A DNA stretch of 63,918 nucleotides, filler included, from Lama guanicoe (taxonomy: Eukaryota): assembly GCA_013239625.1 (NCBI GenBank). It is 76 parts of 73 records of this genome, joined end to end, with 100 filler letters (N's around TTAATTAATTAA, not from the genome) between each part and the next. Parts side by side here need not be neighbours in the genome. Positions count along the whole stretch, not along the records: positions 33,965 to 35,076 come from MU056602.1; 75 more parts are not named here. One strand, given 5' to 3'. The number at the start of each line of letters is the position of its first letter. Positions within the stretch are counted from its first letter, which is position 1. The notes beneath the pieces were generated by a model. It was not told the origin of the DNA, did no database searches, and saw only the letters and a program-made list of their open reading frames with translations. This document shows, one piece after another, positions 1-36,869 of the stretch. The position numbers and the translations under genes are program-made.

Positions 1-454
1 CAACGCTTTTGCCAGACACTTAAAATTGAACATAAAACTGGAATTACCTATAGTCCTCAAGGGCAAGGAATTGTGGAACGTTGTCATCAAACTTTTAAAC
101 ATCAAATTCTTAAATTAAAGAGGGGGGAATTATATCCCCTTACTCCACAAAACTATTTGCATCATGCCCTTTTTATTTTAAATTTTTTGACTTATGATAT
201 CAATGGCAATTCAGCTGCTCTACGTTTTTGGAACCCAAAACCCTCTCATCTTCCTTTGGTGAAACCCGCTCACTAATCAATGGGCCGGTCCTGATCCAGT
301 TTTAATGTGGGGGAGAGGCCATGTTTGTGTTTTTCCACAGGATGCCGATACACCGCGCTGGCTCCCGGAAAGGCTGGTACGCCAGGTGGAAAAGAACACT
401 AGTGCACAAGCTGTAACGACTTCGACTTCAAGAGAAGAGATCTCTGCCGACTGA
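1..454 (+). pseudogene. pol: Betaretroviral ERV pol, integrase C-terminal half, frameshifted
   Basis: Frame 1 reads QRFCQTLKIEHKTGITYSPQGQGIVERCHQTFK (HxTGIPYxPQGQGIVER motif with the catalytic Glu). After a frameshift near 265, frame 2 reads PLTNQWAGPDPVLMWGRGHVCVFPQDADTPRWLPERLVR to TGA at 452-454. Confidence 0.93.
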
Positions 455-501
455 AGCCCAAGTGCAACAATTTATTCATCAAGCGAATCAGATAGCGAAA
501 A
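342..501 (+). pseudogene. env: Betaretroviral env 5' end (JSRV-like signal peptide) with premature stop
   Basis: Splice acceptor tgtgtttttccacag ends at 340 and ATG is at 342, overlapping pol. Translation MPIHRAGSRKGWYARWKRTLVHKL*RLRLQEKRSLPTEAQVQQF (TAA at 414-416) resembles the recalled JSRV Env start MPKRRAGFRKGWYARQR. Confidence 0.85.
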
Positions 502-1221: not shown

Positions 1222-2005
1222 NTGAGATAATTTGATTCTTCAGCATGTAGATATCCAGTTTTCCCAGCACCATTTATTGAAGAGAGTATCTTTTCCCTGT
1301 TGAATGTTCTTGGCACCCTTGTCAAAGATCAATTGCCCATAAATGTATGGATTTATTTCTGGATTTCCTATTTTGTTCCTCTGGTCTATATGTCTGTTTT
1401 TATACCAATATCATACTATTTTGAGTACTGTACCCTTGCAGTGTATTTTGAAATCAGGAATTGTGATTCTTATTTCTCAGGATTCTTTTGGCTATTTGGG
1501 GTCTTAAATTTGTTAAGACTTGTTGTATGACCTCGTAGGTGAGCTATCCTGGAGGCTGTATGTGCACTTGAGAAGAACATGTGTTCTACTCTTGGATAAT
1601 AATTACTGTGTGTGTCTGTTCTATGGTCTATAGTGTTCTCGACTCAGCTGTTCCCTTCTTGATTTTCTGTCTGGATGTTCTATCCAGTATCATGAGTGGG
1701 ATTTTGATGTCTCCTACTATTATTGTACTGCTGTCAATATCTGTCTTTAGATCTGTCGATATTTTTCCATCTTTATGTATGATTGACAAATAAAAATTTT
1801 ATATATTGAAGGCATACACCATGAAGATCTGTCAATATATGCTTCATGTGCATAGGTGCTCTGAAGTTGGTTGTGTATATATTTATAAATGTTATATCAT
1901 CGTGGTGAATTGACCCTTTTATAATTATGCAATGTCCTTCTTTGTCTCCAGAGACAGTTTTAGGCTTAAAGTCTGTTTTATCTGATATAAGTATAGTTAC
2001 CCTTG
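1222..2005 (-). mobile_element. Old LINE-1 fragments (antisense)
   Basis: Typical antisense L1 ORF2 motifs such as atatccagttttcccagcaccatttattgaagag and tctgatataagtatagttaccc. Confidence 0.8.
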
Positions 2006-2287
2006 CCAGGCTGGAGAGGATGAGTCAAGCTGGACCAGGCTAACTTGATAGCATCCCTGTAGGGGCCCACCCTGTGGCCCCACCTTTTAAAACTGTGATG
2101 CTGCTCTTCCAGGACGAAGGACAGGAACTAGGTGCTCTGCTTGCTCCTGCTACACTCCACCTAGCACCAGCACGACATGAAAAAAAANNNNNNNNNNNNN
2201 NNNNNNNNNNNNNNNNNNNNNNNNNNNNNNNTTAATTAATTAANNNNNNNNNNNNNNNNNNNNNNNNNNNNNNNNNNNNNNNNNNNN

Positions 2288-3174
2288 TTGTTGTTTATCT
2301 ATTTTATTTATAGTAGTTAGGATCTGCAAATCTCAAACTCCCAATTTGTCTTTTTGATTTACAGCTTCGTCTGGATATATGCCCAGGGGTGGGATTGCTG
2401 GATCAGATGGTAAGTCTATTTTGTTTTTTTAAGGAATCTCCACACTGTTTTCCATATTGCTGCACCAAACTACATTTTCACCAAGAGTGTAGAAGGGTTC
2501 CTTTTTCTCCACACCCTCTCCAGCATTTATTGTTTGTGGACATTTTAAAGATGGGCATTCTGACTGGTGTGAGGTGCTATGCCATTATAGTTTTGATTTG
2601 CATTTCTTTGATAATTAGTGACATTGAGCAACTTTTTGAGAGCTATTGGCCATTTGTATGTCATTGGAGAATTGCTTGTTCAGGTCTCTGTCCATTTTCG
2701 AATTGGGCTTTCTTCTGTTATTAAGAGTAGTATGAGCTGCCTATTCTGGAGGCTAAGCCCTTGCCTGTCGCATTCTTTGCAAATATTTTCTCCCATTCTG
2801 CAGGTTGTCTTTTTGTTTGTTCATAGTTTTCTTTGATGTGCAAAAGCTTGTAAGTTTAACTAGGTCCCATTTGTTTATTCTTGCTCTTATTTCTATTGCC
2901 TGGGTAGACTGCCCCAGGAGAACATTGGTAAGATTTATGTCAGAGAATGTTTTGCTTATGATTTCTTCTATGAGGTATATAGTGTCTTGTCTTATGTTTA
3001 AGTCTTCGAGCCATTTTGAGTTTATTTTTGTGTGTGGTGTCATGGTGTGCTCTAACTTCACTTATTTACATGCAGCTGTCCAGCTTTCCCAACTCTACTC
3101 GCTGAAGAGACTGTCTTTTCTCCAGTGTATATTCTTGCCTCTTTTATCAAAGGTTAATTGACCTTAGGTCTGTG
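2288..3174 (-). mobile_element. LINE-1 ORF2 3' region (antisense, degenerate)
   Basis: Minus-strand translation KLEHTMTPHTKINSKWLEDLNIRQDTI...INKWDLVKLTSFCTSK matches the L1 ORF2p C-terminal region. Confidence 0.95.
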
Positions 3175-3274
3175 NNNNNNNNNNNNNNNNNNNNNNNNNN
3201 NNNNNNNNNNNNNNNNNNTTAATTAATTAANNNNNNNNNNNNNNNNNNNNNNNNNNNNNNNNNNNNNNNNNNNN

Positions 3275-3560
3275 GGACGCGCGGCGTGGAACGGGGTGAG
3301 AGGTCCGGACCCGTAGAGGACTCTGGGTCAAGTGCAGGATGGCAGAGGTGGGGTTGGCAAGTGCCGTCGCAGGCTACAACGGGCCTGCTGTGGGCTTTGT
3401 CTCTCAATGTGGTTGTGTGGTCCCCAAAAGTCTCGTTCCGCAGTCCCGCCTCGTCATGGATGCTCCTTCCTTACCTCCTGGCCAATAATGCCTGTTAAAT
3501 ACCCTTCTCCCTCTGATGGTTTCCGCCATCTTCCCAGTCCCTACCTTGTCCACCAGCTGG
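3275..3560 (-). promoter_or_regulatory. CpG-rich fragment with candidate first exon
   Basis: Minus strand has the YY1-type motif AAGATGGCGG with ATG at 3529 and a GAG|GTAAGG donor at 3475/3474, followed by CpG-rich sequence. Confidence 0.4.
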
Positions 3561-3901: not shown

Positions 3902-4516
3902 TGAACTTCATACAAGCACTAGGAAAATATCTGAGAATGTTGAGTAAATGGTTCAAATGCAAACCAATCCCATTGTGCTAGATGAACGAACGTCTTTCCA
4001 CATGCTCAATTCTGAGAGTTAAGTGTGCTTGAAAGCCGTCAATAAGCTAGCTAGTTGGGAACACACAGTTTCTTTTCAGTGGGATACTACACTACATAAA
4101 TACATATGGGGAGGTAGTAGCTACAACTTGGTTTTACAGTTAAAATTGCATGAACTTCAAACCTGCACAAGGAAAAATACCGAGATATCAGAGTAAGTGT
4201 TTCTACTGCAAACCATTCCTTTCATGCTAGATAATTGAACATCTTTCCACATGCTCAATTCTGTGTGTTAAGTGTGTGTGAAAGCCATCAATCACCTTGT
4301 TTGTTGGGAACACAGTTTCTTTTCTGTGGAAAATGACACTACATACATATATATTGGGAGGAACTTGCTCCAACTTATGTTTAAAGTGAAAACTGTATGA
4401 AATTCAAACCGGTACTCAGAAATATACCGAGAAAGCAGACTAAGTGTTCCTAGTGCAACTGATTCCGCTTGGTAGATGAACGAACCACTCTCCACATGCT
4501 CAATTCTGAGAGTTGA
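3902..4516 (+). repeat. ~248-bp satellite, diverged monomers
   Basis: Tandem motifs tagatgaacgaacg-tccacatgctcaattctgagag-gggaacaca recur at ~250-bp spacing. Confidence 0.9.
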
Positions 4517-4616
4517 NNNNNNNNNNNNNNNNNNNNNNNNNNNNNNNNNNNNNNNNNNNNTTAATTAATTAANNNNNNNNNNNNNNNNNNNNNNNNNNNN
4601 NNNNNNNNNNNNNNNN

Positions 4617-5562
4617 TGTGAAAGCCATACTTCACAAAGATTTTTGGGAACATAAAGTTTCTCTTCGTTGAAAACCCCACTCTAAAAGTACATACGTGGA
4701 TGTACAAGCCTCAACACAGTTTACACTGAAAATTGCAGGAACTTCAAGCCGGCACTTGGAAACATACTTAGAAACCAGAGTAAGTGTTTCTCCTGCCACC
4801 TGTTCCATTTGCACTAGATGAATGAACGTCTCTCCACATGATCAATTCTGAGAGTTAAGCGTTTGTGAAAGCCGTCCTTCACCTAGCTTGTTGGGAACAC
4901 AAAGTTTCTCTTCAGTTGCAACCTCCAGTTCATACATATATATTGGTTGGTAGAAGGTCCAACATGCTTTTAGTGTGAATATTGCAGGAACTTCAAACCG
5001 AGACTAGGAAACACAGTGAGAAAGCAGAGTAATTGACCCTCCGGCAACCCGTTCCCCTTGTGCTAGATGAACGAACATCTGACACATGCTCAGTTCTGAG
5101 TGTTAAGCATATGTGAAAGCCGTCCTTCACCTAGCTTGTTGGGAACACAAAGTGTCTCTTCAGTTGCAAACTCCAGTTCATACATATATATGGGGAGGTA
5201 TAAGCTCCAACTTCATTTAACAGTGAAAACTGCAGGAAATTCAAACAGGCACTAATAAAAAGACTGAGATACCAGAGTGAGTGTTCCTCCTGCCACCCTT
5301 TCCCTTTGTCCTAGATGAACCAACGTGTCTGCACATGCTAAATTCTGAGAGGTAAGAGTGTGTGAAAGACGTGCTTCAGCCTGATTTTTGGGAAAACAAA
5401 GTTTCTCTACAGGAGTAAACTACACTCCATACATATTTACCGGGAGGTACAAACTCCAACACGTCTTTTTCAGTGAAAACTGCAGAAACTTTAAAATGGT
5501 ACTAGGAAACACACTGGTAAACCACAGTAAGTGTTTCTCCTGCAACCCCTTCCCTTTGTGCT
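4617..5562 (+). repeat. ~248-bp satellite, subfamily A
   Basis: The gggaacac landmark is at 4893, 5141 and ~5390 (spacing 248-249 bp). Confidence 0.95.
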
Positions 5563-6558: not shown

Positions 6559-6670
6559 TTTGGAGATGGGTAGTTAGGTTTGTTTATTTTTTAACGGAGG
6601 TACTGGGGATTGAACTCAGGATCTTGTGCATCTAAGCACATGCTCTGCCACTGAGCTATATACCCTCCCC
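6559..6670 (-). mobile_element. Vic-1-type SINE (antisense)
   Basis: ggaggtactggggattgaactcagga...ccactgagctatataccctcccc is the reverse complement of the same SINE. Confidence 0.88.
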
Positions 6671-15280: not shown

Positions 15281-16029
15281 TTGAAAAGCACTAAATTCTT
15301 GAACTAGAGGTAACTGGCTTTCTTTAGATAACAAGCAATGTTTTATTGTTCCAACCACCTGGTCTTTGTTGTAAAGCTCCTATATATCCTAGCTGTTCTC
15401 AACCTCTTCTGAGCTGTCCGTCAGAGCGATCTGAGTGGTTGTCATCCCGGCTAGAGTCCTCCCGCCAAATTAAACTTAACTCTAAACTTTAAGGCTGAAC
15501 ATGTATTTCAGTCAACAGTTTTGGCCACCATGAAGGGAACCAGAGCAGATTTCTCTCCACCTGGACTCTCTGATTAACTGGAGCCTTGGTACCATCAGTG
15601 GCCCTTTATGCCCATCTGCCATACCATGAAAGGACCCAGAGTAGACTTCTCTCCACCTGGACTCTCTGATTAACTGGAGCCTTGGTACCATCAGTGGCCC
15701 TTTATGCCCATCTGCCTCCTCAGGGAGTCCAGATGAATTTGGGTGAGTCTGTCCTGGTTCTTGGATCTCCAATATTGATTGATGATCCTGAGTTTTATTT
15801 GGNNNNNNNNNNNNNNNNNNNNNNNNNNNNNNNNNNNNNNNNNNNNNNNNNNNNNNNNNNNNNNNNNNNNNNNNNNNNNNNNNNNNNNNNNNNNNNNNNN
15901 NNNNNNNNNNNNNNNNNNNNNNNNNNNNNNNNNNNNNNNNNNNNTGCCAATACTCACCCAGTGGAGACGTCCCAATTGGTTCCAAGTTGAAAGACACTGG
16001 GATCAGGACTGAGTGGCTAGGTAAGAGGC
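15281..16029 (+). mobile_element. Class I ERV 5' LTR end, Arg-type PBS and leader
   Basis: TATA-like tatata and aattaaa poly(A) signal. The LTR ends ...gtcaaca at 15517, followed by TGGCCACCATGAAGGGAA at 15522-15539, a decayed form of the Arg PBS TGGCGACCACGAAGGGAC. Confidence 0.75.
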
Positions 16030-16129: not shown

Positions 16130-17011
16130 ATCACCTGTGACTGAAGAGAGCTGCGTGGAATTGTCTTTCGAGCTCCCCTCGCTTTGACAATGGTTCCGGA
16201 ATCCCGAGCGTGGGGAGGTTCCACCAACGGTCGTCAGCGCGTGGGTTCTAACGGAATGCCTAAGCTCGTCTCCCATGAGGGTTTTCTTAATGTCTCTGTG
16301 CCAGGGAATGCTAGGAGGGTGTGCAGGAAATCCCCGTGACAGAGGCTGCCTCCCCAAGTTCAGGGAAGTTATTTCTCAGAGTTCCCCCTAAGAGGGAACA
16401 CCTGAGACTGAAGAGAGCTGCGTGGAATTGTCTTTCGAGCTCCCCTCGCTTTGACAATGGTTCCGGAATCCTGAGCGTGCTGAGGTTCCACCAACTGTCG
16501 GCAGCGCTTGGGTTATAACGGAATGCTTCAGCTCGACTCCCCTGGGATTTTTCCTAATGTCACTGTGCCAGAGAATATTAGGGGGGTTTGCAGGAAATCC
16601 CAGTGATAGAGGTTGCCTCCCCAAGTTCAGGGAAGTTATTTCTCAGAGTTCCCCCTAAGAGGGAACACCTGAGACTGAAGAGAGCTGCGTGGAATTGTCT
16701 CTCGAGCGCCCCACGCACTGACAATGGTTCCGGAATCCTGAGCGTGTGGAGTTTCCACCAAAGAGAGCTGCGTGGAATTGTCTCTCGAGCGCCCCACGCA
16801 CTGACAATGGTTCCGGAATCCTGAGCGTGTGGAGTTTCCACCCAAGGTCGGCAGCGCGTTGGTTCTAACGGAATGCCTATGCTAGACTCCCCTGGGTTTT
16901 TTCCTAATGTCTCTGTGCCTGGGAATGCTAGGGGGGCTTGCAGGAAATCCCAGTGGCTGAGCCTGCCGCCCCAAGGTCAGGGAAGGTATTTCTCGGACTT
17001 CCCCGTTCATG
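16130..17011 (+). repeat. 267-bp GC-rich satellite
   Basis: The ctgaagagag landmark is at 16141, 16408 and 16675 (exact 267-bp period). Confidence 0.96.
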
Positions 17012-24698: not shown

Positions 24699-25444
24699 AG
24701 GAGAAACACTTACTCTGGTTTCTCAGTCTGTATCCTAGTGCCGGTTTCAAATTCATACGGTTTGCTCTGTAATGCCGAGTTGGAGCTTGTTCCTCCCCAT
24801 ATATATGTATCGAGTGGAGTTGGCAAACGACAAGAAACTTTGTATTCCCTTCAAGCGAGGTGAAGGACGGCTTTCACACACACTTATCTCTCAGAAGTGA
24901 GCATATGGATAGACGTTCCTTCATCCAGCAAAAAGGGAACGGGTTGCATGAGAAACCCTTACTCTGGTTTCTCAGTCTGTTTCCTAGTGCCGGTTTGAAG
25001 TGCCTGCTCTTTTCACTGCAAAAACGACTTTGAGCTTATACCTCCTCATATATATGTATGGAGTGGAGTTGGCAACTGAAAAGAAACTTTGTGTTCCCTT
25101 CAAGCTAAGTGAAGGACGGCTTTCACACACACTTATCTCTCAGAACTGAGCATGTGGAGAGACGTTCGTTCATCCAGCACAAAGGGAACGGTTTGCAGGA
25201 GAAACCCTTACTCTGGTTTCTCAGTCTGTTTCCTAGTGCCGGTTTGAAGTGCCTGCCATTTTCACTGTAAAGCCGTGTTGGAGCTTGTACCTGCCCATAT
25301 ATATGTATGGAGTGGAGTTTGCAACTGAAAAGAAACTTTGTGTTCCCTTCAAGCTAGGTGAAGGACGGCTTTAACACACACTTAGTGAGCATATTGAGAG
25401 ACTTTCGTTCATCCAGCACAAATGGAACGGGTTGCAGGAGAAAC
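24699..25444 (-). repeat. ~248-bp satellite, subfamily B
   Basis: Three tandem reverse-strand monomers with diagnostic gttcccttcaagct, catccagca and ttatctctcag. Confidence 0.93.
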
Positions 25445-33424: not shown

Positions 33425-33864
33425 TTAGAACATGGAATGCACAACACAGAATTTGGAATATAGAATACAGAATTCTGAAAATTGAATTAAGAATATAGAA
33501 TGTAGAACACAGAATATAAAATATAGAATAGGGAATATAGAACATGGAATGCAGAACACAGAATTTAGGACATAGATTACAAAATACTAGATATAAAATT
33601 TAGAATATAGAATATAGAACACAGAGTATAGAATGTAGAATACGGAATACTGAATATACAATTTAGAATATAGAATGTAGAACACAAAATATAGAATATA
33701 GAATACGAAATGCAGAATATAGAATACAGAATATAGAATATACAACACAGAATATAGAATATGGAAAACAAAACCCAGAAAAAATGGAATGCACAACACA
33801 GAATTAAGAACATACAAGAGAATACTGAATATAGTATTTAGAATATTGAATGTAGAACAGAGAA
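33425..33864. repeat. 7-bp satellite
   Basis: Heptamer periodicity. Confidence 0.95.
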
Positions 33865-34063
33865 NNNNNNNNNNNNNNNNNNNNNNNNNNNNNNNNNNNN
33901 NNNNNNNNTTAATTAATTAANNNNNNNNNNNNNNNNNNNNNNNNNNNNNNNNNNNNNNNNNNNNAAAATGAAAAGCCATTTCCATAAGACCTCTGTGTAA
34001 ATCTACTAGGGAATTTCATCCTGGACGGTGGAAGAGGACTGGGGAGGAGGGGGCGATCTCAGG

Positions 34064-34644
34064 TGCGGGGAGCCACTCATGACCTGAGGACTGCCGAGCA
34101 CAGAACGGGACAATAAATCCCAAAGTGCTGGCGTCAGGCTCTGAGATTGATCTAACAAAGGCAATCTCTGTCCTGCCACCCCTTTTCAGGGAAGAATACA
34201 CCAGGTGATCTAAAAGCCCTAGGAACATCCTGAGCCATTAAGCTACTGATGATCTTTGAACAGAGAGATACAATCAGCATACAAGTTAGTGATCTTAGTT
34301 TATAGAAACATTAACCTTAGTTAGTGATCTTNNNNNNNNNNNNNNNNNNNNNNNNNNNNNNNNNNNNNNNNNNNNNNNNNNNNNNNNNNNNNNNNNNNNN
34401 NNNNNNNNNNNNNNNNNNNNNNNNNNNNNNNNNNNNNNNNNNNNNNNNNNNNNNNNNNNNNNNNNNNNNNNNNNNNNNNNNNNNNNNNNNNNNNNNNNNN
34501 NNNNNNNNNNNNNNNNNNNNNNNNNNNNNNNNNNNNNNNNNNNNNNNNNNNNNNNNNNNNNNNNNNNNNNNNNNNNNNNNNNNNNNNNNNNNNNNNNNNN
34601 NNNNNNNNNNNNNNNNNNNNNNNNNNNNNNNNNNGGCTCCGACA
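34064..34644 (+). mobile_element. Betaretroviral 5' LTR (gapped)
   Basis: Ends ...ccgaca immediately before the PBS. The 5' boundary TGCGGGGAG at 34064 is inferred from the TG terminus and resemblance to the JSRV LTR start. Confidence 0.7.
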
Positions 34645-34662
34645 TGGCGCCCGAACAGGGAC
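34645..34662 (+). promoter_or_regulatory. Primer binding site for tRNA-Lys3
   Basis: TGGCGCCCGAACAGGGAC is the canonical 18-nt Lys3 PBS. A probable major splice donor GTAAGT follows at 34723. Confidence 0.95.
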
Positions 34663-34753
34663 CTGAAATCTGGAGGAGTTCGCTGCGTGAAGAAACGGAG
34701 AGCTCTCGACTTTAGAATAAGAGTAAGTCTCCGCGCGGAGTGTGTATGAGAGT

Positions 34754-35076
34754 ATGGGGCAAAATAATAGTAGGGGCTTATTTGTACAGATGCTTAGAGT
34801 TATGCTAAAAGAAAGAGGAATTCAGGTTACAAAGCAACTTTTAGAACAATTCCTTGTCTTTGTGGAGGAAATTTGTCCTTGGTTTCCAGAAAAAGGTACT
34901 GTTAATTTAGAAACCTTGAGGATTGTTGGAGTTCGTTTAAGAGACTATTATACAGCCAATGGCCCAAAGAAATTGCTGGCTACTATCCTTCCTTTATGGC
35001 AGTTAATTCGAGATTGCCTCGACCCGGCAACCAAAGGGGAAAAATTAGAAACAGTCAAAATAGTAAATACTGAACC
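34754..35076 (+). CDS. gag: Betaretroviral Gag matrix domain, open to the scaffold end
   Basis: MGQNNSRGLFVQMLRVMLKERGIQV...FVEEICPWFPEKGTVNLET...LWQLIRDCLD has the myristoylation MG start and CPWFP motif, and is colinear with recalled JSRV Gag. Confidence 0.93.
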
Positions 35077-35176: not shown

Positions 35177-36090
35177 TAGAATATAGAATACGGAATGCAG
35201 AATATAGAATGAAGAACACAAAATAAAGAATGTAAAATAGAGTATATAGACCACAAAAATTAGAACATGGAATGCAGAACACAGAGTTTAGAATATAGAA
35301 TACGGAATGCAGAATATAGAATGAAGAACACAAAATAAAGATTATAAAATAGAGTATATAGACCACAAAAATTAGAACATGGGATGCAGAACACAGAATG
35401 TAGAATATAGAATACGGAATGCAGAATATAGAATGAAGAACACAAAATAAAGATTATAAAATAGAGTATATAGACCACAAAAATTAGAACATGGGATGCA
35501 GAACACAGAATGTAGAATATAGAATACGGAATGCAGAATATAGAATGAAGAACACAAAATAAAGATTATAAAATAGAGTATATAGACCACAAAAATTAGA
35601 ACATGGGATGCAGAACACAGAATGTAGAATATAGAATACAGAATGCAGAATATATAATTTAGAATATAGAATGCATAACACAAATTTTAGTATATATAAT
35701 ACAGAATATAGAACCCAGTATTTAGAAAATGGAATTCAAAACACAGAATTAAGAATATACAATATAGAATACTGAATAAAGAATTTAGAATATAGAATTA
35801 AGAACACAGAATATAGATTATAGAATACGGAATATAGGATAAAATATACAGAATATAGAATGTAGAAAACATATTATAGAATAAAACACATAATATAGAA
35901 TAAACAAGAGAGAATATAGAACCAAGAATTTAGAACATGGCATGCAGAACACACAATTTAGAACATTGAATGCAGAACACAGTATATAGAATAGAATATA
36001 AAGAATACGTAATATAGAAATTAGAACATAGAATGCGGGATAAAGAATTTAGAATATAGAATACAGAATACTGAATATAGAATTTAGAAT
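35177..36090. repeat. 7-bp satellite with a 112-bp higher-order repeat
   Basis: gaccacaaaa occurs at 35249, 35361, 35473 and 35585. Confidence 0.95.
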
Positions 36091-36819: not shown

Positions 36820-36869
36820 GGGTGGGGAGGGTACGGCTCAGTGGTAGAGCACGTGCTTAGCATGCAAGA
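36820..36869 (+). mobile_element. Vic-1-type SINE 5' end
   Basis: ggggagggtacggctcagtggtagagcacgtgcttagcatgc. Confidence 0.85.

Follow-up and report, generated by a model that had tools for sequence, protein, structure and literature searches.

Our analyses make it very probable that the scaffold at positions 33965-35076 represents the 5' end of a single, partly decayed member of an endogenous camelid betaretrovirus family with many copies; this member likely lies in a satellite-like repeat and likely is silent at present. The retrovirus was likely inherited through the germline of an alpaca-type camelid, and its family is a distant cousin of JSRV, which causes lung cancer in sheep. In its way of working it resembles a JSRV/M-PMV-type betaretrovirus, yet it stands outside the JSRV/ENTV group.

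The window, i.e., the whole stretch of 63,918 nt that was analysed, consists of 76 short scaffolds and 75 identical artificial 100-nt linkers and contains 14,655 Ns. Because the scaffolds are joined by linkers, sequences outside 33965-35076 are not genomic neighbours of the provirus. The retroviral scaffold is unplaced and has 1,112 nt, with 303 Ns separating 367 nt on the left from 442 nt on the right. Internal proviral sequence amounts to 442 nt, and 3' LTR, target-site duplication and unique flank are absent from it. The pro gene, where a betaretroviral dUTPase would be encoded, lies outside the window. Two contigs of run X1 are identical to the scaffold (0 differences) over 133 and 199 nt, and the scaffold is hence not an assembly error. 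X1 is possibly the source sample, so these exact contigs do not provide independent support.

Primer site, leader and LTR

An earlier note on this DNA had listed an LTR end CA, an 18-nt primer site, a donor-like GT and 107 open Gag codons, and all four are present on the scaffold (Table 1). With up to three mismatches allowed, the primer site is matched nowhere else in the window, nor in any of 100 shuffles. From established knowledge, and in line with PMC3621094, we take it to be of the Lys3 type. The terminal CA (34643-34644) abuts the site directly, with only 10 nt of U5 being visible. In JSRV/ENTV-type and MMTV-type viral records, 2 nt lie between CA and primer site, whereas the scaffold copy has none. 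Since two contigs of run X3 carry extra letters at this place, this copy probably lost the spacer through a small deletion. Viral names were assigned to the records by protein matches and lengths; in addition, the matrix of the MMTV-type record L007 matches MMTV matrix structures.

Table 1. Coordinates of features on the retroviral scaffold and on the scaffold at 1-501
Position	Strand	Feature	Basis
33965..34063	.	Very high-copy host repeat, probably left flank (integration target)	Contig depth and contig breakpoints
34064..34331	+	Probable U3 part of the 5' LTR (deduced)	TG at contig breakpoint, weak terminal inverted match
34332..34634	.	Assembly gap, 303 N, place of remaining U3, R and most of U5	Spanned by none of the contigs listed
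34635..34644	+	U5 tip with terminal CA, zero spacer to primer site	Sequence inspection
34645..34662	+	Primer binding site, tRNA-Lys3 type, 18/18	Exact match; same site in MMTV-type record L007
34720..34728	+	Probable (predicted) major splice donor, GT at 34723	Consensus match; position like JSRV/ENTV leaders
34754..35076	+	gag start: matrix domain, M-G-x-x-x-S myristoylation motif, 107 codons, ends at scaffold end	Pfam, homologues
1..454	+	3' end of JSRV-like pol (integrase), frame change near 257-276	68-70% DNA identity to four JSRV/ENTV-type records
342..501	+	JSRV-type env start, arginine-rich signal-peptide head, stop at 414-416	58% identity over 48 aligned codons, JSRV/ENTV Env-start frame

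The contrast that the earlier note had drawn between Lys1,2 priming in JSRV and a Lys3 site shared with MMTV was confirmed. All four JSRV/ENTV-type records carry a Lys1,2 primer site, unlike the scaffold, and the MMTV-type record L007 (8,805 nt) has a site identical to that of the scaffold. The MMTV matrix, however, is merely 40% identical over 47 aligned residues. Betaretroviruses prime with lysine tRNAs (Hayward 2013, PMC3621094); in this study the JSRV-like group VI uses Lys1,2, and group VII, a D-type-like lineage of bat betaretroviruses, split off by a switch from Lys1,2 to Lys3. As switches between the two primers have thus already been reported, the primer difference is a lineage marker and no surprise. 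By homology, host tRNA-Lys3 would have primed ancestral reverse transcription at this site. The same Lys3 site is also found in another viral record of 7,470 nt (L014:75-392), which has a betaretrovirus-like matrix only 40% identical to that of the window.

In the leader, counted from the first base of the primer site, the GT of the donor-like GTAAGT motif lies at +78 and the gag ATG at +109, compared with +59 to +66 for the donor-like site and +129 to +136 for the ATG in the four JSRV/ENTV-type records. Again by homology, splicing may have joined this donor to an acceptor for env close to the 3' end of pol. Two contig joints skip 34673-34746; since they occur in DNA runs (X4 and X7), they indicate deletions in other copies and not splicing. 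The leader did not fold better than shuffles (z 0.58).

Left of the gap, summed contig depth in run X3 is ~100,000 over 33965-34040 vs 2,000-3,400 over gag. We did not take summed depth as copy number, but these values mark 33965-34040 as a very high-copy repeat. The repeat at 33965-34063 has no second match within the window, and a tandem repeat search of the scaffold found none. Contigs of three of four runs (X1, X4 and X7) diverge from the window sequence behind 34063, and the alignment of one X1 contig begins at 34064. A TG is located exactly at this breakpoint, and the first 7 nt from here on are those with which the LTR of the JSRV-type record L001 begins. Among 22 TG sites, 34064 gives the best inverted match to the 10-nt U5 tip, which is weak when taken alone, with 90 of 500 shuffles equalling it within 367 nt. 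From the breakpoint and this weak terminal repeat, we are fairly confident that the 5' LTR extends from 34064 to 34644 and is inserted in a repeat. We give a smaller, yet appreciable chance to the left half (33965-34331) being unrelated repeat DNA, brought beside the primer site by scaffolding or insertion, with the LTR lying wholly inside the gap. The gap is unspanned by the contigs listed, the left half shows heterogeneous loose ends, and past the first 7 nt there is no significant likeness to a JSRV-type LTR, 30 of 200 shuffles reaching the score that the remainder of 34064-34331 attains against the L001 LTR. Furthermore, an LTR of ~580 nt would exceed the 444 nt of L001, although the gap length is an estimate only. 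Against an unrelated left half, TG, terminal inverted match and contig breakpoint all meet at 34064, and 34117-34331 and gag have contig depths of similar magnitude.

Gag matrix and phylogenetic position

The frame starting at the gag ATG runs for 107 codons without stop up to the scaffold end. It ends since the scaffold ends, and its length hence tells nothing about the remaining gag. The encoded matrix matches Pfam Gag_p10, a B/D-type matrix, with E 2e-28 and the M-PMV matrix with E 6e-18. Its nearest named proteins are four annotated Vicugna pacos Gags (82-88% identity), two of which were among six homology-search matches and two more were cluster members; the earlier assignment to the betaretrovirus 5' end of a camelid family is in agreement with this. 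The camelid host is deduced from such homologues and not from a host gene. The V. pacos models called 'endogenous retrovirus group K member 10/7/113 Gag polyprotein-like' (XP_072813410.1, XP_072813500.1, XP_072813380.1, XP_072814736.1 and XP_031540026.1) belong to the same family, with XP_031540026.1, which is without matrix, joining it through the full-Gag trees. These names are automatic and borrowed from HERV-K, with no family description. One annotated alpaca Gag has 615 aa with MA, CA and both zinc knuckles, and PSAP and PPxY late-domain motifs are present in the alpaca copies. By homology, unspliced RNA would have given a myristoylated Gag, and its matrix may have directed intracytoplasmic (B/D-type) assembly.

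The exact Gag protein of the window is absent from the protein collection searched, and it carries private substitutions. Among the 120 matches listed of 183, no row is named Camelus, with many rows being unnamed. A matrix search of viral contigs for DNA relatives gave 5 pattern matches and an alpaca Gag search of metagenome contigs gave 150, with none confirmed in either case, and an ESM Atlas look-up returned nothing beyond Gag.

The earlier note had described the matrix as colinear with the start of JSRV Gag, and we found the same, at 57-60% protein and 60-64% DNA identity to JSRV/ENTV, the nearest named exogenous viruses among the matches listed. Identity to JSRV/ENTV rises to 73-74% in the capsid region of the alpaca family. 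The leader layout is similar as well, but the JSRV/ENTV primer is Lys1,2 and not Lys3, and the two are not sister lineages. The JSRV, ENTV and Oryx matrices are 90-97% identical among themselves. Ruminant ERVK-like Gags from Bos, Cervus, Muntiacus, Odocoileus, Dama and Moschus, 54-60% identical to the matrix, fall in the same artiodactyl clade on separate long branches. JSRV, ENTV and enJSRV correspond to group VI of Hayward 2013 and to family II-5 of Verneret 2025 (PMC11831830), which reports II-5 as confined to Caprinae.

With JSRV/ENTV as nearest named exogenous viruses, the scaffold could be suspected to derive from enJSRV or ENTV, either through sheep or goat contamination or through a recent jump of JSRV/ENTV into camelids. 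Such a jump has been reported from dromedary lesions, in which JSRV/ENTV-like sequences have 85-97% DNA identity to JSRV/ENTV-2 (Hemida 2022, PMC9122393, Table 3) and hence represent a small-ruminant-type virus, not the alpaca-type family. The values for the scaffold matrix are far lower, which excludes the sheep or goat contamination that the earlier note had named as a possible refutation, and likewise an enJSRV. Moreover, the primer site differs, many diverged copies exist in three organism codes, and an exclusive clade of camelid and JSRV/ENTV sequences was rejected (see below). We therefore consider either origin extremely improbable.

In three IQ-TREE analyses, full-length Gags of the alpaca relatives stood in for the fragment. 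Tree rows were chosen subsets of proteins, long sequences being favoured; MMTV and HERV-K were absent, and a bird ERV or SRV served as root. The matrix tree (66 rows, 91 columns) united the window with four alpaca rows at 100/100, within a wider artiodactyl clade at 91/85. In the 27-row full-Gag tree, the alpaca family grouped with Bos, cervid, musk-deer, Oryx and JSRV/ENTV rows at 97/95. The clade of the alpaca family and the ruminant lineages obtained 95/92 in the 20-row full-Gag tree with a mixture model and, as the wider clade, 85/99 in the 35-row Gag tree, which had no named Bos row. In the latter tree the clade took in the unnamed Logan Gag P0016, which is sister of the artiodactyl clade in the 27- and 20-row trees. 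The Gag phylogeny proposed as a check by the earlier note thus keeps the family inside a clade with JSRV/ENTV (95-97% bootstrap).

Inside this clade, Cervus/Muntiacus and Moschus rows group with JSRV/ENTV/Oryx at 100/99-100, whereas the camelid rows do not. A forced camelid + JSRV/ENTV/Oryx clade cost 78 log units and was rejected (p-AU 6e-10), in a test for which the group had been defined after the earlier trees had been seen. The term JSRV-related hence holds for membership in the JSRV-containing clade but not for special closeness, as some deer and musk-deer ERVs are nearer to JSRV. Under the mixture model, the eight ruminant rows together form the sister group of the camelid rows (89/90, not starred), a node that the simpler 27-row model does not resolve. 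The ruminant part of the Gag tree departs from the host tree, with cervids in two places. This suggests that the virus lineage circulated among hoofed mammals; co-divergence does not follow from these trees. Judged by sequence comparison, the camelid family is distinct from enJSRV and forms one arm of the artiodactyl betaretrovirus clade that also gave JSRV/ENTV.

Sister of the alpaca rows are the unnamed Logan Gags P0102 and P0135-P0137, which are 86-87% identical over 131-132 capsid columns and possibly represent another camelid's copy. An 80-row FastTree had placed the window beside a Jaculus row. This placement probably arose because that row is without matrix and has few or no columns in common with the window; it was rejected in favour of the matrix-only tree.

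Copies, preservation and age

Contigs from three deep DNA runs, which carry three organism codes, align to the scaffold in numbers of 200-251, many being 90-99% alike. The family is multi-copy in genomic runs and in chromosome-scale gene models and is probably endogenous, with the start of the 5' LTR being deduced. Some scaffold words are contained in 20 of the 24 runs listed, and half or more of them in only one; 14 runs were flagged for small shares and, X7 apart, not counted as evidence. There are no RNA runs among the 24 listed, which says nothing on expression either way.

Of the annotated alpaca copies, three are separated by only 10-17 residues out of 468 and others by 11-13%. Groups of alpaca Gags are ~89% identical to each other, and one group is 96-98% identical. 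The near-identical copies next to much more distant ones suggest several waves, the latest within a few million years, with annotation favouring intact frames. We hence picture a family that would have spread in more than one wave. Integration is evident for the family from its many copies under several host labels, and this copy would have drifted thereafter.

The earlier note had called the lineage fairly well preserved. For this copy the description is not borne out: 9 of its 107 matrix residues deviate where all four alpaca Gags agree, residues 55 and 75 deviate from all 14 other matrix-bearing rows, and 442 nt are too little for such a judgement. If all nine private changes were neutral decay, they would amount to ~3.7% of non-synonymous sites and, by our own estimate with a rate of 2.2e-9 per site per year (PMC4335370), to at most ~17 million years as an upper bound.

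The differences might also be viral and not due to decay, if the copy had inserted recently, were insertionally polymorphic and belonged to a subfamily that is still active. Only one sample exceeds half of the sampled words, at 0.68, followed by 0.29 in the next, and at 34736, 34839, 34977 and 35033 all listed X3, X4 and X7 depth shows another letter. The frame is open, the primer site matches in full, and the alpaca ratio of young to old ERV loci is high, with 176 vs 96 loci for all classes together (Magiorkinis 2015, PMC4335370). Yet the changes hit residues that are invariant in 14 relatives, which points to neutral decay, and an X4 contig with 2 differences in 185 nt and low, single-copy-like depth indicates a close copy in another organism code. 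Contigs lose rare variants and so cannot prove absence, and presence or absence might stem from variation of the surrounding repeat array. We regard a recent polymorphic provirus as rather unlikely and continue to prefer a partly decayed copy.

Furthermore, the matrix frame is open and conserved residues in it are changed, which would fit a domesticated, assembly-defective Gag that restricts related viruses, like enJS56A1 in sheep. Residue 55 aligns inside the M-PMV matrix segment that serves as cytoplasmic targeting signal. There is precedent for such restriction (PMC4276937), but residue 21, the enJS56A1 determinant, is an ordinary arginine here, and the copy adjoins a satellite-like repeat and does not look fixed. 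With gag known here from its first 107 codons only, we consider a restriction factor highly unlikely compared with an ordinary decaying copy.

A second scaffold, known relatives and other elements

The scaffold at 1-501 probably belongs to the same family as the gag scaffold. Its integrase piece on 1..454 matches Pfam IN_DBD_C (E 3e-20), and the four JSRV/ENTV-type records are top-scoring among 154 rows for both integrase pieces. The pol/env overlap and the Env signal-peptide head are shared with JSRV/ENTV, and this head aligns colinearly to the beginning of JSRV Env. In JSRV, orf-x overlaps the pol end; the matching frame here is open for the 38 available codons (2-118), a length too small to be informative. 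A search with the integrase returned 268 representatives at E 0.001, the top one being 68% identical, and none of the top 10 bears a camelid name (2 marmoset, 1 uninformative name, 7 unnamed). The search for homologues of the env start gave 4 candidates, none at E 0.01. If this scaffold is of the same family, the family env would be JSRV-type and not gamma-type, and its arginine-rich signal peptide would probably have acted Rej-like in Gag expression. In JSRV, the Env signal peptide is Rej and is required for Gag synthesis (Hofacre and Fan 2010, PMC3185594). Among the proteins searched, a 60-aa entry labelled Klebsiella pneumoniae integrase (P0157) sits in a cattle ERV protein cluster and probably reflects host contamination of a bacterial record.

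Public gene annotation already contains the alpaca-type family, and repeat libraries probably do so too; Repbase has alpaca-derived entries such as LTR2_Vpa (PMC6726744). Ibrahim 2021 (PMC8605555) gives 679 ERV2 elements for alpaca and 410-561 for Camelus. The main text of that paper mentions neither betaretrovirus nor JSRV, and its element list may already cover the family. With respect to existing annotation, which the earlier note had also named as a possible refutation, there are hence automatic NCBI 'ERVK-like Gag' models and published alpaca ERV2 counts, and a family description is not among them. Our full-text literature search, which covered few subscription journals, found no JSRV-related endogenous family described in South American camelids, and the phylogenetic position of the alpaca-type family may be unpublished. 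Khalkhali-Evrigh 2019 (PMC6675863) states that ERVK is absent from camel genomes, meaning Old World camels; the alpaca-type family qualifies this statement at least for South American camelids. A mouse-lemur ERV, 64% identical, was presented as the first non-bovid member of the JSRV clade (PMC9825726).

The fragment itself is ordinary, with class II ERVs being widespread, primer switches known and copies of the family already annotated as gene models. To our knowledge, nearly all mammals carry class II ERVs. Its interest lies in its relatives, as JSRV and its endogenous copies are a model for oncogenic envelope, Gag-based restriction and the tracing of domestication. JSRV relatives outside ruminants are few and distant, and a camelid family in a supported artiodactyl clade provides a nearer outgroup. 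We may speculate, tentatively, that, among the known arms of a clade restricted to hoofed mammals that later yielded JSRV/ENTV, the camelid family branched off first. It would already have had a Rej-type Env signal peptide and Lys3 priming, and would have gone on inserting into South American camelid genomes during the past few million years, with polymorphic loci as the result. If this were true, the family could serve as an outgroup to date the origin of the JSRV primer choice, Rej and oncogenic Env, and its insertions as markers for alpaca and llama domestication.

Several other repeats were seen in the window. At 15281-15802, an LTR-like end is followed at ~15520 by a primer-site-like sequence of another ERV, presumably of class I, and then by a ~80-nt tandem duplication; 15614-15742 shows a weak protein match to a whale ERV Gag model. 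An AGAATAT-type 7/14-nt satellite is abundant (33425-33864, 35177-36090 and many other scaffolds), and further satellites have periods of ~249 nt (e.g., 3902-5562 and 24699-25444) and of 267 nt (e.g., 16130-17011). A tRNA-derived SINE head at 36824-36869 is, we assume, that of a camelid SINE, and a tRNA-like element without clear anticodon at 6595-6665 is probably a SINE as well.
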